Origin: Minisyncoccota bacterium | Lineage (GTDB): Bacteria; Patescibacteriota; Minisyncoccia; Phycocordibacterales; Zambryskibacteraceae | Assembly (NCBI GenBank): GCA_036517475.1 | Contig: DATDVZ010000009.1 | Location: 14,524-78,523 of the forward strand | Reading direction: 5' to 3' | Length of the DNA: 64,000 nucleotides | Shown here: positions 6,664 through 58,664 of the stretch, one piece after another | Layout of the letters: each line of letters opens with the position of its first letter | Position numbering within the stretch: position 1 is the stretch's first letter | The notes under the pieces: model-generated | What the model was told of the DNA's origin: nothing | The model's database searches: none | The model's input: only the letters and a program-made list of their open reading frames with translations | Program-made: the position numbers and the translations under genes

Positions 6664-6753
6664 AAAAGTAAAAATAAAAATTACAATGCAAAAATCAAAA
6701 AATTTTTTATTTTTAATTTGTATTTTTGATATTTGAATTTTAATTTTTAATAT

Positions 6754-7608
6754 ATGAAATTTATCTTCTTCGGTACAACTGATTTTTCTATAAAAATTCT
6801 TGAGAAACTCAAGGAGAAAGATTGGTTGCCAAAATTAATTGTCACAAAAGAAGATAAACCCAAAGGAAGGAATCTCACTTTGACTGCCCCAGCCGTTAAG
6901 ATGTGGGCAACTACTAACAACATTGACTACTTACAACCGACAACACTTAAGAACACCGAATTCATAAAGAATCTGTCAGTTGTTAGTTGTGAGTTATATG
7001 TTGTTTGTGATTTTGGTAAAATAATTCCAAAAGAGGTTCTAGACATACCAAAACACGGAGTTATTAACGTCCACCCTTCCCTTCTGCCAAAACTTCGTGG
7101 CGCTTCCCCCATTGAAAGCGCAATACTTTATGAAAATGAAACGGGAGTTTCAATAATGAAAATGGACGAGGAAATGGACCATGGACCAATACTTTCACAA
7201 AAGAAAGTTATAGAGTGGCAATCTGATAATCCTCCGTATGCAGGAGTTTTAGAGAAAATTTTAGCTGAAGAAGGAGGAAACCTTCTTATTGAGACACTGC
7301 CAAAATATTTAACAGGAGAAATCAAACCCACAATACAAGATGAAAACAAAGCAACATTCACAAAGAAAATAATAAAAGAAGACGCCTTAATAAATCTTGA
7401 GGAGAGCCCCCAAGACAATCTAAGGAAGATCAGGGCATATCATATTTGGCCGAGAGCTTACATATATTTTGAATCAAAAGGAAAAAAAATAAGGACAATA
7501 ATTTCAAAGGCAAAAATTGATAATGGTGAACTGGTTATAGAAAAAGTTATACCTGAGGGGAAAAAAGAGATGGATTTTATTGATTTTAAAAACGGCTATT
7601 TGAGATAA
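6754..7608 (+). CDS. fmt: Methionyl-tRNA formyltransferase
   Basis: The Fmt HPSLLPKLRGASPIESAIL motif and N-terminal formyltransferase fold pattern are present. Conserved def-fmt synteny. Confidence 0.92.
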   Translation: MKFIFFGTTDFSIKILEKLKEKDWLPKLIVTKEDKPKGRNLTLTAPAVKMWATTNNIDYLQPTTLKNTEFIKNLSVVSCELYVVCDFGKIIPKEVLDIPKHGVINVHPSLLPKLRGASPIESAILYENETGVSIMKMDEEMDHGPILSQKKVIEWQSDNPPYAGVLEKILAEEGGNLLIETLPKYLTGEIKPTIQDENKATFTKKIIKEDALINLEESPQDNLRKIRAYHIWPRAYIYFESKGKKIRTIISKAKIDNGELVIEKVIPEGKKEMDFIDFKNGYLR

Positions 7609-9783: not shown

Positions 9784-9858
9784 TGGCTCCGCGGGTAGGA
9801 TTCGAACCTACGACCAATCGCTTAACAGGCGACCGCTCTACCACTGAGCTACCGCGGA
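9784..9858 (-). tRNA. tRNA-Asn (anticodon GUU), CCA encoded
   Basis: Reverse complement reads UCCGCGGUAGCUCAGUGGUAGAGCGGUCGCCUGUUAAGCGAUUGGUCGUAGGUUCGAAUCCUACCCGCGGAGCCA. It has a 7-bp acceptor stem, D, anticodon (CU-GUU-AA loop) and T arms. Confidence 0.9.
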
Positions 9859-9860
9859 AT
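9846..9860. repeat. 15-bp direct repeat copy A (gagctaccgcggaat, tRNA-Asn 5' end plus 2 nt)
   Basis: Identical 15-mer at 10134-10148. The two copies flank the GIY-YIG ORF. Confidence 0.7.
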
Positions 9861-10100
9861 ATATTTTCTTACAAACTCACGACCGCGATAGCTTTTCAAC
9901 TGTTTTTCACGTCGTATAACAGCTTCACGATCAGCAGCTTGCTCTGTGTAAATTACCATCCATTCGCCAGAAAATCTAGCGGTATAAGAATTTTTAAAAA
10001 ATTTTTTCAAATGTAATTCTAACCGGTCACCCATATCCTTAGTTTGACCTATGTAGATTTTACGATGTGTAGAATTATATAGAGCGTAAACTGTATACAT
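9849..10100 (-). CDS. Small GIY-YIG nuclease (YhbQ/UPF0213-like); ORF runs into the tRNA-Asn 5' end and uses a TAG formed by tRNA nt 8-10
   Basis: YTVYALY...IYIGQT...RL.EH...REK.LK matches the GIY-YIG core. The stop codon lies inside the tRNA gene on the same strand. Confidence 0.75.
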   Translation of the reverse strand: MYTVYALYNSTHRKIYIGQTKDMGDRLELHLKKFFKNSYTARFSGEWMVIYTEQAADREAVIRREKQLKSYRGREFVRKYIPR

Positions 10101-10133
10101 ATTTGAGCCGCTCAACCTCCGCCAGCTGGCGGA

Positions 10134-10148
10134 GAGCTACCGCGGAAT
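10134..10148. repeat. 15-bp direct repeat copy B (gagctaccgcggaat)
   Basis: Exact duplicate of 9846-9860. Immediately preceded by the 18-bp perfect palindrome ctccgccagctggcggag (10117-10134). Confidence 0.7.
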
Positions 10149-20472: not shown

Positions 20473-21738
20473 ATGCCGAAACTTTTGTCTATAAGAAATC
20501 TGCCGAAAGCTATTCTTCATATTGATGGAGACTCATTTTTTGTAGCAGTTGAAGTTTCAAAAAATCCCAAATTGCGAGGTAAACCAGTCGTGACGGGAGA
20601 GGAGAGAGGAATTGCCTCTGCCCTATCATATGAAGCAAAGGCTCTCGGGCTCATCCGTGGCACGCCAATTTACCAAATCCGCAAAAAATTTCCGCAGGTC
20701 ATAGTACTACCGGGAGATTATGAAAGTTATGAAATCTATTCGCAAAAAATGTTTGACATCGTACGCCGATATACAGACACAGTGGAAGAATATTCAATTG
20801 ATGAATGCTTTGCGGATTTAACCGGCTGGCGCAAGCCCTTAAAAATGACATATTTGCAAATTCTAGAAAATGTAAAGAAAGATATTCGCAATGAATTAGA
20901 CATTAGTGTCTCGGCAGGCCTTGCACCAAACAAAGTTCTGGCAAAAGTTGCTTCTAATTGGCAAAAACCTGACGGTCTTACAATAATTCCGGGCCGCCTA
21001 TCTCATAAATATTTACAGAAAACTGCCATAGAAAAAATCTGGGGAATTGGGCCAAATACGTCAGAATTCTTGAAGAAAAAAGGAATTAAAACTGCATATG
21101 ATTTTGCAATTAAAGATGAGAATTGGGTAAAAAATAACCTTACAAAACCATTTTTTGAAATTTGGGGGGAACTTAACTGCCAAGAGGTTTACAAAATTAA
21201 TCCAATACCTAAGGAAACTTACGCCTCAATACAAAAGACTAGAACTTTTACTCCCCCATCATCTGACAGATCATTTTTAATTTCTGCTCTTTCAAAAAAC
21301 CTGGAGGAAGCCTGCGCCAAAGCAAGGGCGTATAACCTAGCAGCTAAAAAAATTTCATTTTTCCTTAAAACCCAAAGTTTCTCCTTTCGCACTTCACTGA
21401 TTACATTTGATTCTCTACTTAACTTGCCGGAGATGATAATGCCTGCCATAAGAGAAGAATTTGACAAGATTTATGTAAAAAGTGAACTGTATAGGACTAC
21501 TGGGGTTATTCTTCAGGATTTAACCGATCAGAAAATTTCACAGCTTGATTTATTCGGCGAAAACGAAAAACAAGAAAAATTCAAAGTAATACATGAACAA
21601 ATTGATAATTTGCAGGCAAAACATGGAAATAAAATAGTGCATCTGGCATCTACTAACACTGCCCTAATCCGCCAACTGGCGGATAAAAGAAGCGGGACTG
21701 AAATAAAGAATGATGGAAGAGATCTATTGTTTCTGTAA
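20473..21738 (+). CDS. dinB: Y-family DNA polymerase IV (DinB)
   Basis: ILHIDGDSFFVAVE has the catalytic Asp residues, and SIDECFADLTG, together with the little-finger region, matches the Y-family. Confidence 0.9.
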   Translation: MPKLLSIRNLPKAILHIDGDSFFVAVEVSKNPKLRGKPVVTGEERGIASALSYEAKALGLIRGTPIYQIRKKFPQVIVLPGDYESYEIYSQKMFDIVRRYTDTVEEYSIDECFADLTGWRKPLKMTYLQILENVKKDIRNELDISVSAGLAPNKVLAKVASNWQKPDGLTIIPGRLSHKYLQKTAIEKIWGIGPNTSEFLKKKGIKTAYDFAIKDENWVKNNLTKPFFEIWGELNCQEVYKINPIPKETYASIQKTRTFTPPSSDRSFLISALSKNLEEACAKARAYNLAAKKISFFLKTQSFSFRTSLITFDSLLNLPEMIMPAIREEFDKIYVKSELYRTTGVILQDLTDQKISQLDLFGENEKQEKFKVIHEQIDNLQAKHGNKIVHLASTNTALIRQLADKRSGTEIKNDGRDLLFL

Positions 21739-21742
21739 ACAA

Positions 21743-21945
21743 CTTATCCACTAGCGAGCGAATATTCCTTTTAAAAAATCTTGCAAAGCGCTTGGGCGCA
21801 AGCAAAGAAATTTTCAGCAGAAAATTATGCGGACTTTTCCGATTATCCACTAGCGAGCGAATATTATTTCGGAAAAGGCTACGGAGTATGACGATACGAG
21901 TCTTGAGCAAATTTTCAGCAGAAAATTATGCGGACTTTTCCGAAA
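21743..21945. repeat. Two tandem ~100-bp direct repeats with conserved 23-nt and 35-nt ends and divergent centres
   Basis: ttatccactagcgagcgaatatt ... aaattttcagcagaaaattatgcggacttttccga occurs twice (units about 21743-21842 and 21843-21945). Confidence 0.6.
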
Positions 21946-21959
21946 TAATACGAGCGAGC

Positions 21960-22137
21960 CTTCATCCCGTTAGAGATAGGAAACGCTTCAATATATTGGC
22001 GATGTGTTACTAAAGTTATCTTGTTTAAGGCGTTTCCGTGAATATTTAATGATATCAGTTTATTAATCTCTATTTTTATTACTTCGTGTTATAGATGATA
22101 ATCTATAACAATGTAATCTCTAACGGGATTCATGAAG
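21960..22137. mobile_element. MITE-like segment, copy B (cttcatcccgttagagatag ... taatctctaacgggattcatgaag)
   Basis: The 19-20 nt termini are identical to the termini of 2741-2945 but in swapped order. AGCCTTCAT is present at both outer flanks. Confidence 0.45.
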
Positions 22138-22320
22138 CCTTCATCTTCATAAAAGGACAATTAGGTATAGAATTATTGGTAAAATCATAAATATGAGTCC
22201 CATACGAAGCCGCGGTCACGGTTTCAAAAAGGGACTAAATCAAATAGACAATAGTCGGCACACTTAATAATAATTTATTTAAAAGCAGATTTTGTTGACC
22301 GCGACCTGCTTCGTAACAGG

Positions 22321-22995
22321 ATGAGAATTTTATTGGTAGAAGATGAAGAAAAGCTTGCCAATACTTTAGCCAAAGGGCTGGAGCAAAAGGGATATGCTGT
22401 GGACGTGATTTATGAAGGCGATAAGGCTTTTGATAGAATCTCACTAAATCACATTGATTACGACTTAATAATTCTTGATCTAATGCTTCCCGGAAAAGAT
22501 GGGGCCACCATTACAAAAGAAGTAAGAGCCAGAGACATCACAGTGCCCATATTAATCCTTACTGCCAGAGATGAGACTGAAAATAAGGTTGATCTTCTTT
22601 TATCCGGCGCGGATGACTACCTCGTAAAACCCTTTTCATTTGACGAATTAAACGCCAGAATTACTGCACTTCTGCGCCGGCCGGAAAATATGGTATCTAC
22701 TGTTCTTCAGATTCGTGATATAAAATTAAATCCCGCCGAAAGAGTGGTAACTAGGGGCGATGTTGTTATTCCTCTTACATTAAAAGAATTCGGCTTACTG
22801 GAGCATTTTATGCGCAATCCAAACAAGGTAATTAACCGTGAGGAGCTCCTAAGCCACCTGTGGGATTTTAATTACGATTCATTCAGCAATGTCGTCGATG
22901 TTCACGTTAAAAACCTTAGAAGAAAGCTCGATTATTCAGACCGCGAAAATATACTTGAAACGGTTCGCGGCGTGGGTTACCGGCTTAAGGAATAA
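22321..22995 (+). CDS. OmpR-family two-component response regulator
   Basis: Receiver domain (LVEDEE, DLIILDLMLPGKDG) plus a winged-helix output domain (VHVKNLRRKL, GVGYRL). Confidence 0.9.
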   Translation: MRILLVEDEEKLANTLAKGLEQKGYAVDVIYEGDKAFDRISLNHIDYDLIILDLMLPGKDGATITKEVRARDITVPILILTARDETENKVDLLLSGADDYLVKPFSFDELNARITALLRRPENMVSTVLQIRDIKLNPAERVVTRGDVVIPLTLKEFGLLEHFMRNPNKVINREELLSHLWDFNYDSFSNVVDVHVKNLRRKLDYSDRENILETVRGVGYRLKE

Positions 22996-23014
22996 ATACA
23001 GAACGGACGCATTT

Positions 23015-24064
23015 TTGCGCACTGAAGTAAACTTAATTGCTCTTAAGCTCCTTTTTGCACTCTCACTTCTGCTTATAATCGCGATTGATTTCAACCATCT
23101 CTATAAAAATGTCACTTATACTATTATTGGTGACATAAGTGATAGTATAAAAAGTGGAAGTTTCACAAGTTTGACCGCAGAACAAATACTAATTTCTGCC
23201 CAAGAAATAAAAAATAGAAATTTTTTTGCAGTCCTAATTTTTACCACACTTGTCACTCTTCTCTTCAGTTATTTTATTTCCAGAGTCACTCTCTCCCCCG
23301 CTCGCAACGCTCTTAAATCACAAAAAAGATTCATAAGTGATGTTGCCCATGAACTTCGTACGCCTATTTCAATAATAAAAACTGACAGCGAGGTAGCACT
23401 CTTTGACAAAGATCTGGATCCGGACACAAGGAAACTGCTTAAAAGCAACATTGAAGAATTAGACAGAGTATCAAATATTATTAACAATCTTTTAAGCCTC
23501 AACAACCTGATAAACCCCGAAAGGATAAGTTTTGGTGGTGTAGATTTAGAACTGGTTATAGATGAGTCAATAAAGAAGCTCGACACGCTGGCAAGAAACA
23601 AAAAAATCGAGATCACCCTTAAAAAGACCCAGCCTTTGATATTATCCGGAAATATAACTGCTTTAGAGCAGATTGTCACAAATATTCTGAAGAATGCAAT
23701 TACCTATACCTCTGCCGGAGGGAAAATTACAATTACCGCTGAACCTGACTTCGGTGGGAATGTGATTTTGACAATAAAAGATAATGGTATAGGAATTGAT
23801 CAAAAAGATTTATATCATATTTTTGAACCTTTTTATCGAGCTGAAAGTTCTCGCAAAAGACACATCGGTGGCTCAAGCGGTCTAGGTCTTACAATAGTCA
23901 GTGAACTGGTAAAACTTCATTCAGGTAAAGTCAGCATAAGAAGCGCAGTCGATAGAGGCACCACCGTCTCAGTTATTTTTCCATACGGTCAAGAATTCTC
24001 TCCTACTGAAAGAAGAAAAGTAAGCGAAGTGTCCTTAAATTTTCTCGACAGAAGGAGTCATTAG
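23015..24064 (+). CDS. Sensor histidine kinase (membrane-anchored, HisKA + HATPase_c); start uncertain (TTG at 23015 or overlapping the RR stop)
   Basis: H-box VAHELRTPIS. N-box NLLKNAITYT. G1 box DNGIGI. G2 box GSSGLGLTIV. Two N-terminal TM segments. Confidence 0.85.
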   Translation: MRTEVNLIALKLLFALSLLLIIAIDFNHLYKNVTYTIIGDISDSIKSGSFTSLTAEQILISAQEIKNRNFFAVLIFTTLVTLLFSYFISRVTLSPARNALKSQKRFISDVAHELRTPISIIKTDSEVALFDKDLDPDTRKLLKSNIEELDRVSNIINNLLSLNNLINPERISFGGVDLELVIDESIKKLDTLARNKKIEITLKKTQPLILSGNITALEQIVTNILKNAITYTSAGGKITITAEPDFGGNVILTIKDNGIGIDQKDLYHIFEPFYRAESSRKRHIGGSSGLGLTIVSELVKLHSGKVSIRSAVDRGTTVSVIFPYGQEFSPTERRKVSEVSLNFLDRRSH

Positions 24065-24437
24065 TTTCACCCAACACCATTTTTAATTAATTTAGTAATT
24101 AATTAAAATAATAAATAAATTATTAGATAAAATTTATAATCCTACATCCATAAAAATAGTGCTGGGTTCATACCTTCTTCATTGAGAGCTGTTAAAATTT
24201 TTACTGGAAACCAGAGCAGTACTCTGGCATTAGAAGTCTAATAAAACACTATGTGATAAAAAGAAATTAAGATGTTTTTATATTGTTAGGAGAAGTGATG
24301 AGGGTCCTGTTTTAAAAGAGCGGGACTCTCATTACTTCTCTTAAACCAAAATTTCAACTCTCTTGTCAGAGTTTTTTTTGTAATTTACCCCGTGAGATAA
24401 TTATCGTTAATATTTATGCCATTGCATTGCGCAATTA

Positions 24438-24465
24438 TATCTCATGGGGTATACCCCGTGAGATA
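24438..24465. promoter_or_regulatory. 28-bp palindrome TATCTCATGGGGTATACCCCGTGAGATA (operator-like) in the 500-bp pilB upstream region
   Basis: Near-perfect dyad. Half-site copies lie at 24386-24399 and 24547-24562, the latter 12 nt before the pilB ATG. A related palindrome lies at 55407-55430 upstream of dnaE. Confidence 0.55.
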
Positions 24466-24573
24466 AAAATCAGTTAGTTATCTGAATGCTTATTTTAAAT
24501 TAAATAATAAAATAATAAATATATATAGGTAGTTATTGCAAATAAATATCTCACGGGGTATATTTTGTTGAAT

Positions 24574-25800
24574 ATGAAAACTACAGTAGGAGAAGACCGC
24601 GTGGAAATTGAGCTAAAAAAGGCTCCGCAAATATCAATAATAGGTCTGATCGACGCACTGATTGAAGATGCAAACGACAAAGGCGCTTCGGATATTCACA
24701 TTGACCCCAATGAAACTGAAATACGTGTCAGATTACGAATTGATGGAGTACTACAAAACGCCTTTAAGTTGCCTCAGAGTATTCATTCTGAAGTTATTTC
24801 AAGAATTAAAATTCTCTCGCGGCTGCGAACAGATGAGCACCAAATGACGCAAGACGGAAGATTCAGGCATATTTTTCTGGACGGGAGTTTTGTTGATGTC
24901 CGTGTTTCAATTGCACCAACTTATTATGGAGAAAATGCGGTGTTAAGGCTTCTTTCCGACAGAGCGGAAAGTTTTACTCTTGAAACACTCGGCTTTAGTC
25001 AAAGTGATCAGGAGAAAATAAAAAAAGCAATGAAGCGTCATGGTGGCATGATTCTTTCCACTGGTCCGACCGGTTCCGGCAAGACCACAACCCTATACAC
25101 AATGGTTAAAATGCTCAACAGAAGCGATATTTCTATTGTCACAATTGAAGATCCTATTGAATACTCAATAACCGGAGTGGAACAGATTCAGGTAAATTTC
25201 CGAACCGGCCTCGCCTTTGCAAGCGGTCTGCGTTCAATTCTAAGGCAGGACCCAAACATAATAATGGTGGGAGAAATAAGAGATGCTGAAACCGCCTCCA
25301 TTTCGGTAAATACCGCACTCACAGGGCACCTGCTTCTTTCAACACTTCATACTAGTGACGCATCCACTACAATACCGCGGCTCTTGGATATGGGAGTAGA
25401 ACCATATTTGGTAGCCTCTACCATAAATATTGCCATTGGACAGAGACTTGTGCGAAAAATCTGCAATCACTGCAAGGAAAAGAGCATTGTTTCAGAATCG
25501 GTCTTAAAAAGTTTTGAAAACTCCCAGCTTTCAAAATATCTCAAAATTGGCGATGTAATTTACAGCGGAAAAGGATGTGAAAAGTGCAATAGCAGCGGCT
25601 ATTCGGGAAGAATTTCCATTAACGAGGTATTGGTTGCTGACGATGAAATCCGCGAGGCTATTTTGCATAAAGCTCAGTCAACTGAGTTAAGAAAGATTGC
25701 TACAAAAAACGGCATGCGAACAATGCTTGAAGACGGTTATAACAAATGTCTGGAGGGAAAAACAACAATAGAGGAAGTTCTAAGGGTAATCCACGAATAA
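24574..25800 (+). CDS. pilB: Type IV pilus/type II secretion assembly ATPase (PilB/GspE family)
   Basis: Walker A GPTGSGKTTT, Asp box, Walker B and His box are present, with the tetracysteine CNHC...CEKC of the GspE/PilB family. Confidence 0.9.
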   Translation: MKTTVGEDRVEIELKKAPQISIIGLIDALIEDANDKGASDIHIDPNETEIRVRLRIDGVLQNAFKLPQSIHSEVISRIKILSRLRTDEHQMTQDGRFRHIFLDGSFVDVRVSIAPTYYGENAVLRLLSDRAESFTLETLGFSQSDQEKIKKAMKRHGGMILSTGPTGSGKTTTLYTMVKMLNRSDISIVTIEDPIEYSITGVEQIQVNFRTGLAFASGLRSILRQDPNIIMVGEIRDAETASISVNTALTGHLLLSTLHTSDASTTIPRLLDMGVEPYLVASTINIAIGQRLVRKICNHCKEKSIVSESVLKSFENSQLSKYLKIGDVIYSGKGCEKCNSSGYSGRISINEVLVADDEIREAILHKAQSTELRKIATKNGMRTMLEDGYNKCLEGKTTIEEVLRVIHE

Positions 25801-25807
25801 ACCACTG

Positions 25808-26902
25808 ATGCAAAAAATAACGCTGTCAAAGTTAAAAAATATTAATTTTTTTGGCTCCCTCACATCTAAAGATCAAATTTTCTTTGCCAAACGGCTTGCA
25901 TTCCTAATTAAAGCAGGAGTGCCAATACATGATGCGCTGAATCTGATTAAAGAGCAGACAAGCTCAAAAAAATACAGGAAAGTTTTAGAAAATCTTGTTT
26001 CTAGGGTTTCCGAGGGTGCTTCCCTCTCAAAGGCAATGTCTGCATCCAAAAGAGATTTTGGCGATTTTTCCATTAATATCATTTCTGTGGGCGAGGAAGC
26101 GGGGGTGCTGGCAGAAAATTTAAACTATCTTTCAGAGGAGCTTGAAAAGAGAGAATCCCTCAGAAAGAAGATTATTGGCGCGCTTTTATATCCATTTTTT
26201 ATTTCAATAGCAACACTTCTGATCACAGTGGTGCTGACTATCTTTATTTTCCCCAAAATTGCGCCCATATTTGCAAGCCTTAACACAAATCTGCCGTTCT
26301 CAACAAAAACAATGATATGGGTGAGTAATTTTCTTTCTGAGAGCTGGTTTATAATTTTCCTTCTTCTTTTTTTAATTACTGTTGGAGCAGCAATAGCTGC
26401 AAAAAAGAGCCAAAAATTCAGGAATCTATTTCACAGAAATCTGCTTCGCCTGCCTTTCATCGGCAAAATACTTTTAAATTACAACTTGGCAAATCTTAGC
26501 CGAACTCTCTCGCTTCTTCTTAAAAGCGGAATGACTCTAGGTGAAGCAGTTGCGATTACATCCAGATCTCTACAGAATGTTTCATATAAGGGCGAGTTAA
26601 AGCAGATTGAGACTTCAGTAAATAGGGGTGAAAAAATTTCCGAGTACATAAAGAAAAATAAAAAATTGTTTCCGGAAATTTTTTCATCACTAATAGCTAT
26701 CGGAGAAAGAAGTGGAAATTTATCCGAAACTCTTTTTTATCTCTCAGAGTGGCATGAAAACGAGGTGAATGAGTCTACAAAAAATCTTTCATCTTTGCTT
26801 GAGCCTGTACTTATGCTTATAATGGGGCTAATTGTCGGCTTTATTGCAGTATCAGTAATAACTCCGATTTATGGCATAACACAACATTTAGGACCAAGAT
26901 AA
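25808..26902 (+). CDS. pilC: Type IV pilus/T2SS inner-membrane platform protein (PilC/GspF family)
   Basis: Duplicated GspF domains with three TM segments. Adjacent to the PilB-like ATPase. Confidence 0.88.
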   Translation: MQKITLSKLKNINFFGSLTSKDQIFFAKRLAFLIKAGVPIHDALNLIKEQTSSKKYRKVLENLVSRVSEGASLSKAMSASKRDFGDFSINIISVGEEAGVLAENLNYLSEELEKRESLRKKIIGALLYPFFISIATLLITVVLTIFIFPKIAPIFASLNTNLPFSTKTMIWVSNFLSESWFIIFLLLFLITVGAAIAAKKSQKFRNLFHRNLLRLPFIGKILLNYNLANLSRTLSLLLKSGMTLGEAVAITSRSLQNVSYKGELKQIETSVNRGEKISEYIKKNKKLFPEIFSSLIAIGERSGNLSETLFYLSEWHENEVNESTKNLSSLLEPVLMLIMGLIVGFIAVSVITPIYGITQHLGPR

Positions 26903-33621: not shown

Positions 33622-36600
33622 CTATCCGGGATTATTCATCTCACTTATCATTTTGTGTTTAATACTTCCCTCGTATCCGGAACCAGCGGGAATAAGACGT
33701 CCGATTATGACGTTTTCCTTTAAGCCGACCAATCTGTCATCTGTTCCGCGGATAGCCGAGGCAATAAGCACTCTGGTCGTATGCTGGAATGAAGCAGCAG
33801 AAAGAAAACTTCTTCTTGAAAGGGAAACTTCTGTTATGCCCATCAATACCGGTTCTGCCTTGGCTTCCGTTTTTCCTTTTTCTTTTGCCATTGCATTTGC
33901 CTCAAGGAGATCCGGTTCATCAACCACTTCGCCGGCCGTGAATTCTGTTTCTCCGGAATCTTTTACTTTTCTTCTTGAAAACATCTGCTTAACAATGACT
34001 TCGATATGTTTGCGGGAAACTGTTTCTCCCTGAAGTTCATATGGTTTGGTAATTTCTCTGATTATATATTCCTGAGCTGCTTCCTTGCCGGCGTATTTGA
34101 ATATTTCATCAATATCAGCAGACCCATCAGTTAAAAGATCGCCCTTTTTCACTTTATCTCCTTCTTTAACAAGAACAGTTCTGGTAGCAATAACCGGATA
34201 TTCAATTTTTTCTTTTGATTTTGATGACCCTTCAGGCAAAATAGAAATCATCTTATCCATTCCCTCTTTCTTTATCGCCATAACAATACCGTCAACATGG
34301 GAAATTACCGCTGGATTCTTTGGAGTACGATTTTCAAAAACTTCTTCCACTCTTGGCAGCCCCGCAACAATGTCCCCGCCGACAGATGCTGTTCCTCCGG
34401 CATGGAATGTTCTCATTGTAAGCTGTGTCCCCGGCTCACCAATTGCCTGTGCTGCCACAGTCCCCACCGCCTCTCCCAAATCCACAGTCTTGTGCAGACC
34501 CAAGTCTTCCCCATAGCATTTGACGCATACTCCTTGGGCCGCCTTGCAGTTAAGCGGAGATCGTACTGACACTTCCTTAATTCCCTTTGATTCAATCAGC
34601 TTGGCATCATTTTTTGAGAGAAGTGTCCCTTTTTTAAAAATGACTTCGCCATCCCCTTGTGCTACATCTTCAGCCAAAAATCTGCCCTTGACGTTTTTTG
34701 AGAGAGAAGTTTCAATTCCTGAGGCTCCGACAGAAGAAACCCTGATAAATTCTTTTGTCCCGCAATCTTCCATACTCACAATAGCATCTTGTGCCACATC
34801 AAAGAGACGTCGTGTAAGATAGCCGGCTTTGGCAGTATTTAGCGCTGTGTCAGTCAAACCCTTGCGGGAGCCGTGTGTAGTAATAAAGTATTCCAAAGGT
34901 GTAAGACCCTCCTTTGAACAAGAAATAATAGGAAATTCAATGGTTTCTCCAATGGTATTAGTAATGAGACCCTTCATTCCCGCCATTTGAGTAAGTTGAG
35001 AATGAGAACCTCTGGCTCCGGAATTTAACATGTCATAGACTGAACCGTTAGGATCTAGAGTCCCCGGAACTAATTTCTCAACATCACTTTTTGCTTTGTG
35101 CCAGATTTCAATATGTTCTCGCATTCGCTCTTCAGTTGAAAGAAGTCCGAGATTATACTGTTCAGTAATATTATCAGATTTAATTCTTGCGGCTTTTATT
35201 ATTTTATCCTTGCCTTCTGGAATTATCACATCATCTATACCCCAAGTTATACCTGAGCGAGTAGTGTACTTGAAACCGAAAACTTTGATTTTATCCAGAA
35301 TCGCCGGCAGCTTCTCAATTCCGTAACGTTCTATCAGATCATCAATAAGAACCGACATTCTCTTTCTGTCAATTTCCTGATTCACATACGGATAATCAGA
35401 CGGCAGGACACTATTAAACATTAGTCTGCCTACTGTTGTCTCAAAAATTTTACCTTCAAATTGTTTGTATTTTTCACTCTCAGTTCCCAGAACTTTTATT
35501 AAAGCGCGCTGTCCCACTATTCCGTAATCGTGTGCTGTTATTGCGCTGTTCGGACTCGGATAAATTCTACCCTCGCCCAAATCATCCTTTACTAGCTTGG
35601 TCATCCAGAAACACCCCAGAATTATGTCTAGTTTATCAATTGAAGCAATGAGATTCCCGCTTCCCGGCTTTAAAAGATTTTTATCAGAAGCCATTATCAT
35701 TTTTGCCTCCAATTGAGCTTCTTCTGAAAGGGGCACATGAACTGCCATCTGATCGCCGTCGAAGTCAGCATTAAATGCTGTACAAACAAGAGGATGAACC
35801 TGAATTGCATTTCCTTCAATTAGCACTGGTTTAAATGCCTGAACTGAAAGACGATGAAGGGTGGGAGCGCGATTGAGCAAAACATATTTTCCCGCAATAA
35901 CATCTTCCAAAATCGCCCAGACTTCTGGGATTCCATCTTCAATCAGCCTGCTTGCCCCGCGAATATTAAATGCAAGTTCTTTTTTCAGAAGCTCAGAAAT
36001 TACGAAGGGTTTGAAAAGCTCAAGAGCCATATGCTTGGGCAGGCCGCACTCATTAATTTTCAAATCAGGTCCAACAACAATTACAGAACGACCGGAATAA
36101 TCTACTCTTTTACCTAAAAGATTCTGCCTGAAAATACCTCTTTTGCCTCTTAGATTATCTGCCAGTGATTTAAGGGGTCGCCTCTGCGCCATAGTTGCTC
36201 CCTGAGATCCGGTGTTGCCATGTCGGATTGAGTTATCAAGCAGAGCGTCCACTGCTTCCTGAAGAATTCTTTTTTCATTTCTTAAAATTACATCCGGCGC
36301 GCCGATTTCCTTTAATTTTTTTAGACGGTTATTTCTATTTATAACTCTTCTGTAAAGATCGTTTACATCGGATGTGGCATATCTGCCGCCATCCAAAGGA
36401 ACCATAGGGCGAAGAGCTGGAGGAATAACAGGAATTCTCAAAAGAAACATCCATTCTGGACGCAAGTTATTCTTTATCATCTGTGTTATGAGGCTGATTC
36501 TTCGATTGAGTTTGGGGGTTTCAAGCGCGCTTGCATCTTTAGTATTTTCCTTGAGCTTCCCGAGTAGTTTCTTTAAATCAGTTTTTTTAAGAAGATTGTA

Positions 36601-55302: not shown

Positions 55303-55406
55303 CTAAATGTCATTTTTTTAACAAAGCCCGCACTTCTCGCCCGCCAAAATTTCCTTTGAAATTTTGGCGGGCAAATCGATTCCTATGATAAATTTTCTTT
55401 TGTTTG

Positions 55407-55430
55407 TCATGGGGTATGCCCCGTGAAATA
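55407..55430. promoter_or_regulatory. Palindrome CATGGGGTATGCCCCGTGAAATA, relative of the pilB-region operator, upstream of dnaE; second half-site TTATCTCATGGGGTATAATG at 55466-55486
   Basis: 24 nt nearly identical to 24442-24465. The proximal half-site embeds a TATAAT box 17 nt before the dnaE ATG. Confidence 0.55.
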
Positions 55431-55502
55431 CAGATAATATGAGTAAGAATTGTAATATGGGAATCATTATCTCATGGGGTATAATGTGCCCATAATTTTA
55501 CT

Positions 55503-58500
55503 ATGAGAGACTTTACCCATCTACACACCCATTCACACTACAGTCTCCTTCAGGCTCTGCCAAAAATTCCTGATCTTGTAGCTTCAGCCAAAAAATACGG
55601 AATGCACTCCCTTACTTTGACTGATGTAGGTAATTTGTACGGAGCAATTGAATTTTATAAGGAATGCAAAAATCAGGAAATAAAGCCAATTATAGGAGTT
55701 GATTTTTATCTCTCGGCAAGAAGTCGCTTCGATAAGCAAGCTGGTATTGATAATAGGAGAACGCGACTGATACTACTGGCAAAAGATGAAACTGGTTATA
55801 AGAATTTAATAGAACTTGTTACAAAATCTCATTTGGAGGGATTTTACTATAAGCCCAGAATTGACAGGCAGCTTTTAGAAAAACACCATGAAGGACTTGT
55901 CGCCATCTCTCCGTTATTTGGTGGTGAAATTACCTTAGACTTCGGCAATGAAACTTTGATGGATCAGACTTTGGATTTCTATAAAAGTGTTTTTGGGAAC
56001 GATTTTTATCTTCAACTGACAGTTCATCCTGAAATAGATGGACATGAAGAAAAAATAAAACATGTGACAGAAATTTCAAAAAAATACGAAGTCCCCATTG
56101 TTGCTTCACATGAAGTCTATTACATCTCTCCACAGGATAAGCTCTCAAGAGACACCTTACTTGCAGTACAAAACATCGGTGAAAAGGACCGCGACTACTC
56201 AGAAGGGGGGGAGGATTTTTCTTTTATTTCTTGCGAATTAGCAGAGGATTATTTTAAGAGTTTCCCAGAAGCTTTAAAAAATAACTCGGAAATTGAAAAA
56301 AAATGCAATCTGGAACTCAAACTTGGCTCATGGGTATTCCCCCACTTTGAGGTTCCTAGTGGAAGCAATCATGACAATGAACTGAAGAAATTAGTTTATG
56401 ATGGCTTAAAAAGAAGAAAACTGGATGAAACAGATGAAATCAAGGAAAGGATTGAATACGAACTGAGTGTAATAGCAAAAAAAGGTTATTCGCCCTACTT
56501 TTTAATAGTTGCTGATATATTGCGTTTTGCCCATGAGAATAAAATTATTACCAATACCAGAGGATCTGTTGCGGGCTCGATGGTAAGTTTCCTTTGTGGT
56601 ATTACAACTGTAAATCCAATTGAATATAAACTTCCTTTCGAAAGATTCCTTAATCCTGAGCGGCCATCTGCGCCTGATATTGATATAGATATAGCTGATG
56701 ATAAAAGAGATGGGGTGATTGAATATGCGAGAAAAAAATACGGAGAGGATAAGGTGGCCCAAATTGGAACCTTTGGAACAATGATGGCAAGAGGTGCTGT
56801 GCGAGATATAGCGCGAGCGCTGGATTTCCCTTATTCTCTAGGCGACAGAATTGCAAAATTGATTCCTTTTGGATCTCAGGGCTTTCCAATGACAATAGAT
56901 AAGGCCTTCGAGATAGTCCCCGAATTAAAGAATCTCTATGAAAGTGAGAAAGATGTCAGAGACATAATTGATATGGCAAAAAAGATAGAGGGTTGCGCAA
57001 GACACATCTCTGTTCATGCAGCAGGTGTTGTGATTTCTCCTACAAAACTTACAGACTTTGTACCTCTGCAATATGACCCCAAGGGGGAAAATAAAGTTAT
57101 TACTCAATACGACATGTATTCAATTGAAGATGCTGGGCTTCTGAAATTTGACCTGTTGGGGCTTAAAAATCTGGCAATTATTGCTGACACAATTCATAGG
57201 TTGGAAGCCATAGAAGGAAAAACTATTGATATTGAAAACATACCTTTGGATGATAAAAAAACTTTTGAAATTCTCTCACGGGGTGAGACCGAGGGGGTGT
57301 TTCAATTGAACGGAGACGGTATGACCAGATTTCTTATTGAACTCAAACCTTCATCAATTCATGATATAAACGCAATGGTTGCTTTATATCGCCCAGGACC
57401 GATGGAGGTTATTCCGGAATATATCCGCAGAAAAAATAATCCAAAACTTATAACCTTTCTTGATCCAAGAATGGAGAAATTCCTTAAAGAATCATACGGG
57501 TTAATAGTTTATCAGGATGATTTGCTTTTTTGCGCAATAGATCTGGCCGGATATAGCTGGATTGAAGCTGATAAATTCCGCAAAGCAGTTGGTAAAAAAA
57601 TTCCTGCTGAAATGGCGGCACAGAAGAAAAAATTTATTGATGGTGTTATTGAAAATGGACAAAGTCCCGCATTTGCAGAAAAGCTTTGGAAACTTTTTGA
57701 GCCCTTTCAGGCATATGGATTCAATAAAGCACATGCAGCAAGTTACGGAAGGGTCTCATATCAGACTGCCTATCTAAAGGCTAATTATCCAGCAATCTAT
57801 ATGTCGGCTGTTTTAACTGCTGATTCAGGAAATATTGAAAAAATTGCCACTTTTATTAATGAATGCAAAAGGATGGGGATTCCGGTACTTCCTCCATCAG
57901 TAAATGAAAGTTTCAGAGGTTTTAGTGTTGTGCGCGCAGATAGGGTGCCTGACACAATTAGATTCGGACTTGCAACAATAAAAAACTTCGGCGAGGGAAT
58001 TTCTCGCTCAATAGTTGAGGAAAGAAAACAGAACGGAAAATTTATATCTCTACCAGACTTTATCCAGAGAATTAAGGATAAAAATTTAAACAAAAAATCT
58101 CTTGAATCTCTAATCAAAGCAGGAGCACTTGATGAATTTGAAGACCGGGGGGTGATGTTTGCAAATCTGGAATTATTGCTTGAGTTTCACAAGGAGCAAA
58201 TGATGGGAAGTTCATCCCATGACTCGCTTTTCGGCACAGTAGGAGAAATTTCATCAATTTCCTTGAAACCTGCTCTAATTGCAACAATCAAAGATAAGTT
58301 AGCGTGGGAAAGGGAGCTTCTTGGATTATATATTTCTGGCCATCCGCTTGATAACTTTAAGGACAGAATTGAAAAATCGGGAAATAATATTTTAAAAATC
58401 CGCTCAGATCCGAAGGAGGGTGTAGTGGTAGTTCTGGCCGGCATTGTGGATGAGTTAAGAGAAGTTACGACCAAAGGAAATGAGAGAATGATGTTTTTCA

Positions 58501-58664
58501 AATTATCTGACTTAACCGGCTCTATTGAGGGTGTTGCTTTTCCAAGAACATACGAGGCTCTGAAAGAAATTGTCAAACCGGAAGCATGTATTGCAATCGG
58601 GGGTAAAATTTCAAAAAGAAACGGCGAGGTAAGTATTATTCTTGAGAAAGCCAAGGTTTTATAA
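55503..58664 (+). CDS. dnaE: DNA polymerase III alpha subunit (DnaE)
   Basis: PHP domain HLHTHSHYS. Pol IIIalpha catalytic core, fingers, beta-binding and OB regions. Confidence 0.95.
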   Translation: MRDFTHLHTHSHYSLLQALPKIPDLVASAKKYGMHSLTLTDVGNLYGAIEFYKECKNQEIKPIIGVDFYLSARSRFDKQAGIDNRRTRLILLAKDETGYKNLIELVTKSHLEGFYYKPRIDRQLLEKHHEGLVAISPLFGGEITLDFGNETLMDQTLDFYKSVFGNDFYLQLTVHPEIDGHEEKIKHVTEISKKYEVPIVASHEVYYISPQDKLSRDTLLAVQNIGEKDRDYSEGGEDFSFISCELAEDYFKSFPEALKNNSEIEKKCNLELKLGSWVFPHFEVPSGSNHDNELKKLVYDGLKRRKLDETDEIKERIEYELSVIAKKGYSPYFLIVADILRFAHENKIITNTRGSVAGSMVSFLCGITTVNPIEYKLPFERFLNPERPSAPDIDIDIADDKRDGVIEYARKKYGEDKVAQIGTFGTMMARGAVRDIARALDFPYSLGDRIAKLIPFGSQGFPMTIDKAFEIVPELKNLYESEKDVRDIIDMAKKIEGCARHISVHAAGVVISPTKLTDFVPLQYDPKGENKVITQYDMYSIEDAGLLKFDLLGLKNLAIIADTIHRLEAIEGKTIDIENIPLDDKKTFEILSRGETEGVFQLNGDGMTRFLIELKPSSIHDINAMVALYRPGPMEVIPEYIRRKNNPKLITFLDPRMEKFLKESYGLIVYQDDLLFCAIDLAGYSWIEADKFRKAVGKKIPAEMAAQKKKFIDGVIENGQSPAFAEKLWKLFEPFQAYGFNKAHAASYGRVSYQTAYLKANYPAIYMSAVLTADSGNIEKIATFINECKRMGIPVLPPSVNESFRGFSVVRADRVPDTIRFGLATIKNFGEGISRSIVEERKQNGKFISLPDFIQRIKDKNLNKKSLESLIKAGALDEFEDRGVMFANLELLLEFHKEQMMGSSSHDSLFGTVGEISSISLKPALIATIKDKLAWERELLGLYISGHPLDNFKDRIEKSGNNILKIRSDPKEGVVVVLAGIVDELREVTTKGNERMMFFKLSDLTGSIEGVAFPRTYEALKEIVKPEACIAIGGKISKRNGEVSIILEKAKVL

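Follow-up and report, generated by a model that had tools for sequence, protein, structure and literature searches.

Inverted repeats at the pilB and dnaE promoters of a Minisyncoccota bacterium: probable miniatures of a hairpin-bounded mobile element family

Repeated sites ahead of pilB and dnaE

The DNA considered here is a 64,000-nucleotide stretch (the window; 38% G+C) of contig DATDVZ010000009.1 from a Minisyncoccota bacterium, a member of the Candidate Phyla Radiation (CPR), and the subject is a short repeated sequence that lies just upstream of its pilB/pilC gene pair and of its dnaE gene. On the + strand, a pilB-like T2SSE ATPase gene (24574-25800; Pfam PF00437, 8.9e-119) is followed by a gene for a pilC-like T2SSF platform protein (25808-26902; Pfam PF00482, 6.9e-54), and dnaE, encoding the DNA polymerase III alpha subunit, lies on the same strand at 55503-58664. 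Among named organisms, the nearest DnaE homologues are those of Zambryskibacteria and Taylorbacteria (63-70% identity), and the ATPase protein is also present on metagenome scaffolds from the Rifle aquifer. The initial annotation of this DNA drew attention to a long non-coding region of about 500 bp ahead of pilB. The region is indeed long and non-coding, and its exact span is 24065-24573 (509 bp), between the stop codon of a histidine-kinase gene (24064) and the ATPase ATG (24574). No open reading frame (ORF) of at least 40 aa lies wholly inside it, and gene callers place none there either.

The pilB gap contains a 28-bp palindrome (24438-24465) with a half copy, or arm, on either side, TACCCCGTGAGATA at 24386-24399 and TATCTCACGGGGTATA at 24547-24562. 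The gap between rnhB and dnaE contains a degenerate palindrome (55403-55430) and the arm TATCTCATGGGGTATA at 55468-55483. The sequences listed in the initial annotation are all present in the two gaps and its coordinates are mostly right, except that the arm nearest to pilB ends 11 rather than 12 nt ahead of the ATG, and that the 24-mer reported ahead of dnaE is really 23 nt long (55408-55430). Their recurrence is far above what shuffled sequence gives. When up to three mismatches are allowed, the 16-mer TATCTCAYGGGGTATA has 8 matches in the window against 0.57 expected, and none of 100 shuffles reaches 8; one of the eight matches, at 35236, is at chance level. In a position-weight scan of the 64 kb, seven sites score above 20 bits and all others below 15 bits, and all seven of the strong sites sit in the pilB and dnaE gaps, so that the motif is indeed common to the two upstream regions. 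The same scan rules out a general promoter consensus within the window; promoters of relatives are plain TGnTATAAT sequences without an arm.

A common regulator of the pilus and the replicative polymerase had been proposed on the basis of these sites. In its explicit form, a dimeric repressor or activator would bind the palindrome and the proximal half-sites and thereby co-regulate pilB/pilC and dnaE. The restriction of the motif to these two promoters within 64 kb, and the overlap of the proximal copies with a -10 box, both favor a dedicated operator of this kind. Two findings had been named beforehand as counting against it, namely occurrence of the motif ahead of many unrelated genes and its absence from orthologous promoters, and both were made. 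The first is described below. As for the second, 80 loci with orthologues of the ATPase (48-68% identical, 559 kb in total) contain no arm; the best weight-matrix score among them is 12.9 bits, no 17-mer has fewer than three mismatches, and the regions upstream of these orthologues have nothing in common with the gap in the window. For dnaE, the four closest relatives (69-70% identical) retain the rnc-nusB-rpmF-rnhB / dnaE-thrS gene order, and no arm was found in about 86 kb around them. Their rnhB-dnaE spacer is 68-83 bp long, with a plain TATAAT promoter, versus 200 bp in the window, and the window's spacer therefore holds extra DNA. Only one other dnaE orthologue, at the distant Paceibacterota locus L019, carries the module, which is a further point in favor of an operator. 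The lack of arms in the 559 kb and 86 kb of sequence from relatives suggests that they were gained in the window's lineage.

Several known types of site were also considered and rejected. Against a LexA/SOS box, a nearby Y-family polymerase gene has no arm, the downstream genes are not SOS-like, and there are hints in the literature that the LexA motif of Patescibacteria is a direct repeat. NrdR and DnaA boxes, parS, CsoR-type C4/G4 sites, MerR-type spacer operators and promoters of T7-like single-subunit polymerases do not fit the sequence or the geometry. The polymerase gene in question (impB/mucB/samB-type, 20473-21738) lies upstream of the pilB gap, as do genes for an OmpR-type response regulator and the histidine kinase (22321-24064), which also have no arm. 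Relatives do not keep the 20473-24064 neighbourhood, and the OmpR-type two-component system is not conserved beside arms.

Repeat units in other CPR genomes

When one genome per GTDB species was searched for exact copies of the palindrome core, 35 loci were found, about 25 of them in CPR genomes (Saccharibacteria, Kaiserbacteria, Campbellbacteria, Paceibacterota and other Parcubacteria; host G+C 42-59%), some of which have more than one locus. At the CPR loci the full 28-mer is invariant and outward-facing half copies lie on its flanks. The 10 matches outside the CPR consist of the core only, with no flanking arms, and their number is close to the roughly 9 matches estimated to arise by chance. 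The palindrome does not occur in 2.9 million viral contigs, where only four isolated arm matches without a partner were found, and a phage origin of the repeats is rejected. No published account of the repeat family was found in the literature by motif, taxon or element type.

The near-invariant 17-nt arm occurs at the CPR loci as inverted pairs about 63 bp apart, often in tandem. Of 50 adjacent pairs, 37 have their dyads 61-67 bp apart, and the modal distance is 63 bp. The repeating unit of about 63 bp has the layout TACCCCRTGAGATA, a spacer of 33-39 nt and TATCTCAYGGGGTA; written with the flanking TA dinucleotides and arms of 12-14 bp, it reads TA-CCCCRTGAGATA, 33-39 nt of free spacer, TATCTCAYGGGG-TA. 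The palindrome arises where two units abut, and single units without a palindrome also exist. Conservation of the arms is extreme: among 113 arm sites in 188 kb of motif-positive loci, 97 are perfect 17-mers, seven have one mismatch and nine have two to four. The only variable arm position is a pyrimidine, Y. Inside 42 units with distinct spacers, the two Y positions are C/T in 36 cases, C/C in 6 and T/T in none, as compared to 20.6, 13.7 and 7.7 calculated here from the arm frequencies if the two were independent. At junctions between units (n = 31) the corresponding counts are 23, 5 and 3. Because Y covaries within units, and T/T pairs are seen only at junctions, what is inherited or selected is the unit, not the palindrome, and the unit is polar.

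The spacers have no conserved columns except for a faint -35-like signal, and their G+C content tracks that of the host. Neighbouring units often have identical spacers, and copy number varies between close relatives: locus L013 has three units and L026 two, although the flanking MurA proteins are 96% identical. Units at two loci of one genome (L014 and L032) have 19 nt in common. With a 28-bp repeat, spacers of about 35 bp and an invariant repeat, the arrays bear a resemblance to small CRISPR arrays. That identity can nonetheless be given next to no credence, since many loci have just one to three spacers per array, neighbouring spacers are so often identical, the repeats at the array ends are exact half copies joined to -10 boxes, no cas gene occurs among the annotated neighbours of any locus, and the repeat is missing from viral contigs.

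The outer arms bear a close relationship to the starts of genes. In other genomes, outward-facing arms lead into TATACT, and a start codon comes 6-8 nt after it. When the 43 terminal outward arms are sorted by the hexamer that follows, those with a final T have a start codon 5-9 nt downstream in 24 cases and none in 4, and those without it have a start codon in 0 cases and none in 15 (Fisher p = 2.6e-8). The pilB promoters of relatives that lack the motif consist of TGnTATAAT or TATACT followed by 6-8 nt and the ATG, and extended -10 leaderless promoters are therefore the norm in the group. In such a promoter the arm would cover about -24 to -11. The end of an outward arm together with TATA(C/A)T, with A at position 2 and T at position 6, is thus predicted to form the -10 box of a sigma-70 extended -10 promoter, 6-8 nt ahead of the start codon of leaderless genes. 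The suggestion that the proximal copies embed TATA-type -10 boxes suited to leaderless or very short-leader mRNAs is upheld by this rule of a T at position 6, so far as sequence can tell.

The genes that begin after the arms are diverse. In a Pfam scan of 30 downstream proteins, the ones that gave a match belong to more than 20 unrelated families, including an NAD-epimerase, prfB, a SpoU methylase, murA, pheS, a HIT protein, TrwB-like ATPases, dnaE (L019), truB, a SLOG protein, a 2-hydroxyacid dehydrogenase, a cytidylyltransferase, GH1, a SET-domain protein, pyrB, YibE/F, MgtC, a PD-(D/E)XK nuclease, a GHMP kinase and two-component proteins. These arm-bearing genes show no functional coherence, and when a regulator was sought among them, none was found to have a DNA-binding domain. 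TrwB/TraG-like coupling-protein ATPase genes begin directly after an arm, or after the GIY-YIG cassette described below, in three genomes (L017:1-1786, L021:3228-6010 and L153:1773-3261).

A dedicated pilB/dnaE operator is extremely improbable in the light of these data. The motif family precedes genes from more than 20 unrelated families, it is missing from the 80 pilB and four closest dnaE orthologous promoters, and its sites are mostly perfect copies; near-invariant sites are atypical of transcription-factor site collections and of regulons. The supposed dimer operator is really the junction of two abutting repeat units, with Y covarying inside the units and not across the palindrome, and the arms are the ends of an insertion (see below).

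The window itself contains three units, two ahead of pilB and one ahead of dnaE. Unit 1 spans 24386-24451 (dyad distance 66). Its outer arm, on the minus strand at 24386-24399, reads TATCTCACGGGGTA in the outward direction and is the same 14-nt arm as in the CPR repeat family; this left end faces a TAAATT hexamer with no gene behind it. A 38-nt spacer (24400-24437) leads to the palindrome at 24438-24465, which is the junction of units 1 and 2, composed of arms at 24438-24451 and 24452-24465 with GGGG-TATA-CCCC at its centre; identical junctions occur between tandem units of other genomes. Unit 2 (24452-24560) belongs to a long class, with a dyad distance of 109 and an AT-rich spacer of 81 nt (24466-24546, 15% G+C). 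Its outer arm (24547-24564, + strand) consists of TATCTCACGGGGTA at 24547-24560 fused to a -10-like TATATT at 24559-24564, 9 nt before the ATG at 24574, so that the right end reads GGGG-TATATT, and a -35-like TTGCAA (24536-24541) lies 17 nt upstream. Ahead of dnaE, the degenerate junction TTTGTCATGGGGTA / TGCCCCGTGAAATA at 55403-55430 has a decayed left arm, and its right arm opens the dnaE unit (55417-55481, dyad distance 65). The spacer is 37 nt long (55431-55467), and the outer arm region (55468-55496, + strand) consists of TATCTCATGGGGTA at 55468-55481 fused to TATAAT at 55480-55485 (right end GGGG-TATAAT), followed by a second -10-like sequence, CATAAT, at 55491-55496. The distance to the dnaE ATG (55503) is 17 nt from TATAAT and 6 nt from CATAAT, and it is CATAAT that aligns with the -10 box of the relatives.

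Two other structured features accompany the units. The stretch at 24147-24384 (+ strand), outside the repeat units and unique in the window, folds strongly (z = -6.2 on the + strand and -4.7 on the minus strand), and it contains a 28-bp stem at 24286-24344 that is perfect on the + strand only, by virtue of G-U pairs, followed by a weak hairpin and a T8 run (24372-24380). The hairpins noted earlier in the pilB gap are thus real. The stretch may be a small RNA, or else a terminator region. No Rfam family reaches its gathering score in 24100-24573, the sole Rfam match in the window being a tRNA-Asn; a permissive Rfam scan of the pilB gap gave only hairpin-like matches far under threshold, and the candidate small RNA region has no homologue among the 80 relatives. 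The second feature, at 55339-55372, is a perfect hairpin in the gap that separates the divergent genes rnhB and dnaE; its stem measures 15 bp (GCCCGCCAAAATTTC-CTTT-GAAATTTTGGCGGGC). It is likewise unique in the window, and it belongs to the extra DNA, because the closest relatives have spacers of only 68-83 bp.

The GIY-YIG cassette and RNase P RNA

At the Campbellbacteria locus L027, an 85-aa ORF (6742-6996) with a GIY-YIG domain (Pfam PF01541, E = 1.6e-13) has an outer arm on one side and a junction on the other. A homologue occupies the same position at the Saccharibacteria locus L039; the DNA similarity of the two, about 75%, starts exactly at the end of the outer arm and stops at the junction, and the flanks are unrelated. 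A third homologue lies beside the array of L023, where both flanking arms carry the same variant (TCCCGTTAGAGATA / TATCTCTAACGGGA). The protein family has 668 CPR homologues at E <= 1e-10 (66-91% identical among the 120 matches listed), many of them on contigs of less than 1 kb. Six further species were picked purely by protein similarity and so constitute an unbiased sample. The gene begins 8-10 nt downstream of CCCCRTGAGATA or a CCAC variant in every one of them, and in five it stops 1-3 nt before TATCTCAYGGGG. Altogether, nine of nine independent loci examined have a GIY-YIG gene of about 80 aa enclosed by the arms or by a variant of them that co-varies, the right arm being degraded in L153.

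Possible traces of this cassette can be recognized within a few of the short units. The spacer of the unit at L036 matches the leader and ORF of the GIY-YIG element at 21 of 23 positions, and the spacer of unit 1 in the window opens, on the minus strand, with GAGATA-ta-ATTGCGCAAT, identical to the 5' leader of the L157 element (10 of 10 positions for ATTGCGCAAT). The GIY-YIG ORFs (L027:6742-6996, L132:2501-2743 and homologues) also contain an internal inverted repeat, CCCCAAGCAGTTTTA ... TAAAACTGCTTGGGG, about 150 nt apart, so that the cassette has nested long-range complementarity.

In three species (L142, L152 and L157) it is the P3 stem of RNase P RNA that the arms form, with the 3' arm running directly into AGGAAAGUCCG. 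Downstream, matches to Rfam RF00010 score 86 and 53 bits (E = 2e-25 and 4e-14), under the 100-bit gathering score. When the ORF is swapped for a tetraloop, the RNase P RNA folds into P1, P2 and P3, and in L157 the arms carry a compensatory CCAC/GTGG change. According to this folding, the GIY-YIG gene would reside in the P3 loop without destroying its host gene. The rnpB genes contain other hairpins as well. The Zambryskibacteria gene at L152:2080-2770 has, besides the GIY-YIG gene in P3, two more short hairpins, located in the specificity-domain region and in J2/4, whose arms are almost the same and whose loop, GTCGCGCAAGCGC, is identical; the rnpB gene of L157 contains a different large hairpin, present twice.

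The occurrence of the arms as an RNA helix in rnpB, with a compensatory change, raises the question of whether the units act at the RNA level, transcribed units folding into P3-like hairpins that serve as RNase III or RNase P processing sites, as terminators or as stabilisers of mRNA ends. A 12-14-bp stem is possible in every unit, and hetero units keep full pairing on one strand via a G-U pair. At Y, however, a Watson-Crick A-T pair is never seen and G-C is rare, the opposite of what selection for pairing would produce. The T-at-position-6 rule and the 6-8 nt to the ATG fit a DNA -10 box with the arm upstream of the transcript, and the unit hairpins have no following T-run. An RNA-level role is therefore improbable as an explanation of the family.

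Stems of different sequence also close the GIY-YIG homologues that are more distant; these lie in a 16S rRNA gene (L110) or beside tRNA genes (L069 and the window). Three motif-negative CPR loci, L110:1-330, L111:3790-4110 and L069:150-470, have small GIY-YIG genes closed by inverted repeats of 24, 13 and 15 bp, respectively; the gene in L110 is followed by 16S rRNA-like sequence, and the one in L069 is flanked by a duplicated tRNA 3' end. The window has an 88-aa GIY-YIG ORF on the minus strand (9849-10115), 32% identical to the arm-flanked family and directly upstream of tRNA-Asn (9784-9858). On either side of this ORF the 5' end of the tRNA recurs as a 15-bp direct repeat, GAGCTACCGCGGAAT, at 9847-9861 and 10134-10148, and the arrangement looks like an insertion of homing-endonuclease type beside a tRNA gene.

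Evidence for mobility comes from a pair of loci with the same gene order and UvrD proteins that are 84% identical. In L132, the full-length element lies between uvrD and a LysM gene in the context ACTC-TATA-(CCCC...278 bp...GGGG)-TATA-CTAATTTT. The corresponding site in L160 is empty, reading ACTC-TATA-CTAATTTT, and no arm occurs in its 7.9 kb. The pair thus represents a precise 278-bp insertion with TATA on both sides, equivalent to blunt entry of a TA...TA element into TA|TA. Additional indels are found beside the filled site, at L132:2765-2960, namely a segment of about 190 nt in L132 only and a 44-nt hairpin (…AATCCCGCCCAAGCGGGATC…) in L160 only.

Genes for Y1_Tnp transposases (IS200/RAYT-type, PF01797) occur near two of these sites, at L152:1341-1970, adjoining the rnpB gene that houses the GIY-YIG gene, and at L160:4957-5637, about 2 kb from the empty site and just past uvrD. 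They are a possible alternative mobilising enzyme for the hairpin repeats. If so, the family would be akin to repetitive extragenic palindromic (REP) doublets, or REPINs, with a Y1 (HUH) transposase acting in trans, in place of the GIY-YIG protein, as the mobilising enzyme. The extragenic inverted doublets with their conserved polar mismatch agree with such a scheme. It is the GIY-YIG gene, though, that the arm pair or its variant encloses in nine of nine loci. A REP family is as a rule confined to one species; the present arms are identical from one CPR class to another. Mobilisation by a Y1 transposase is accordingly judged highly improbable.

Probable insertion into promoters, and known systems compared

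Based on these data, the repeats in the window are probably three miniature non-coding units of a CPR-confined family of hairpin-bounded mobile elements, two of them before pilB and one, together with a decayed arm, before dnaE. Full-length members have these arms around the 80-aa GIY-YIG gene and are located in the rnpB P3 loop or free-standing in a TATA sequence. The miniature units presumably insert into the TATA of extended -10 leaderless promoters. At the right junction, GGGG+TATA+(A/C)T would rebuild a usable -10 box, and for this reason insertions should be tolerated and pile up at gene starts. Each insertion would also recreate (G)TATA(C) at both ends, which could explain the tandem arrays with GGGG-TATA-CCCC junctions, as well as the C that follows TATA at 39 of the 46 outer ends (unit flanks GGGG-TATA-C). 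Insertion into or next to ancestral -10 boxes is the most likely history of both promoters in the window, and the core promoters of pilB/pilC and dnaE would now be chimeric, composed of an element end and the remainder of a host -10 box. The identity between the two promoters would then reflect common descent of the inserted DNA. With the shared sequence taken as the end of a mobile element that lands in promoter TATA boxes, it is no longer evidence for a shared regulator of pilB and dnaE.

Several observations weigh against this interpretation. The filled/empty pair concerns the full-length element and not the 63-bp unit. Most spacers are unrelated, even within one genome, unlike typical copies of miniature inverted-repeat transposable elements (MITEs), and yet spacer length is tightly kept at 33-39 nt. 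In the orthologous arrays L012 and L034, whose flanking proteins are 61% and 47% identical, the arms are perfect and the spacers saturated with changes. Perfect arms and fixed spacing at saturated arrays, together with the lack of T/T units, suggest selection beyond simple selfish spread. The window has no full-length arm-flanked copy, only the 32%-identical GIY-YIG ORF next to tRNA-Asn. Finally, the 80-aa GIY-YIG protein has no DNA-binding module, and we know of no GIY-YIG enzyme that acts as a transposase.

Some of the same observations can be accommodated by supposing that the arms have been domesticated into a global regulatory module. A protein, perhaps the GIY-YIG protein or a derivative, would bridge inverted arms six helical turns apart and tune many leaderless promoters. 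The modal spacing of 63 bp corresponds to six turns, the arms overlap the -10 box from about -24 to -11, arms and spacing are kept where spacers have fully diverged, and T/T units are never observed. As a full explanation this seems rather unlikely, though it deserves more weight than the other alternatives: the only candidate binding protein linked to the sites is a nuclease, the downstream genes are functionally incoherent, the units are patchy among close relatives, and such near-invariant sites are not what regulons usually have. A regulatory role of the arms is possible.

Returning to the mobile element, MITEs are recognized by several features. One of them, terminal inverted repeats on a short non-coding multi-copy segment, describes the 113 arms in 188 kb and the three units in the window. 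Another, a longer coding element with the same termini or a co-varying variant of them, was found at nine loci, with the GIY-YIG protein as a candidate mobiliser only. As regards target-site duplication with an empty site, TATA flanks the full-length copy of L132 on both sides and occurs once in L160, and the flanks of the short units are consistent with this; as regards internal sequence common to the copies, only the few spacers named above show it. A broader proposal, which we offer tentatively and with somewhat less than even confidence, is that the family represents a new kind of mobile element: a hairpin-closed cassette of about 280 bp that encodes only an 80-aa GIY-YIG nuclease, has its home in the P3 loop of RNase P RNA and also inserts in TATA, and is parent to miniatures of about 63 bp that act as portable, possibly co-regulated leaderless promoters before essential genes across the CPR. 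No repeat family with such ties to both a GIY-YIG cassette and RNase P RNA appears to have been described.

If the insertion model is correct, CPR bacteria use the ends of mobile elements to rebuild the core promoters of such essential genes as dnaE, pheS, prfB and murA, and a minimal GIY-YIG cassette inside RNase P RNA seeds miniature copies, adding a nuclease type that, to our knowledge, is used by no insertion-sequence family. The units could also provide compact portable promoter parts for the few genetically tractable CPR organisms. Identical "operators" before unrelated genes are usually taken as evidence of a regulon; here they would mark insertions of the same selfish DNA, and the same misreading could affect comparative regulon reconstruction in other CPR genomes.

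The closest known systems each resemble the family in part. Looping operator sets (lac O1/O3, gal OE/OI and deo) similarly combine a site over the core promoter with another that lies upstream by a whole number of helical turns. The CPR sites differ in being near-invariant, in their incoherent regulon and lack of a known cognate regulator, in the covariation between the arms of a unit, and in their apparent arrival by insertion.

REP/REPIN doublets with their RAYT (REP-associated tyrosine transposase) proteins are also extragenic inverted doublets with conserved arms, looser interiors, fixed spacing and tandem clusters. A single CPR arm, however, is not itself a hairpin, the units lie at gene starts rather than gene ends, the enclosed gene encodes a GIY-YIG protein rather than a Y1 transposase, and the arms are common to phylum-level lineages.

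The Correia elements of Neisseria, promoter-creating MITEs, are likewise short and non-coding, with terminal inverted repeats, TA-containing targets and many intergenic copies, and an outward-facing -10 at their junction drives neighbouring genes. The CPR units are far smaller (about 63 bp), with interiors of free sequence but fixed length; their full-length relative encodes a GIY-YIG nuclease instead of a DDE transposase, and the arms are identical across CPR classes.

The last comparison is with free-standing GIY-YIG homing endonuclease genes, such as those for phage T4 Seg and I-TevI, and with protein-coding insertions in CPR rRNA genes. The likeness lies in the GIY-YIG catalytic domain, in insertion within a conserved stable-RNA gene (here the P3 of rnpB, and for the distant homologues 16S rRNA or the vicinity of tRNAs), and in the precise presence/absence polymorphism. 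The CPR protein, in contrast, is 80 aa long and without a DNA-binding domain, its gene is always closed by a 12-14-bp stem, and the element also occupies non-homologous TATA sites and appears to have spawned non-coding miniatures.

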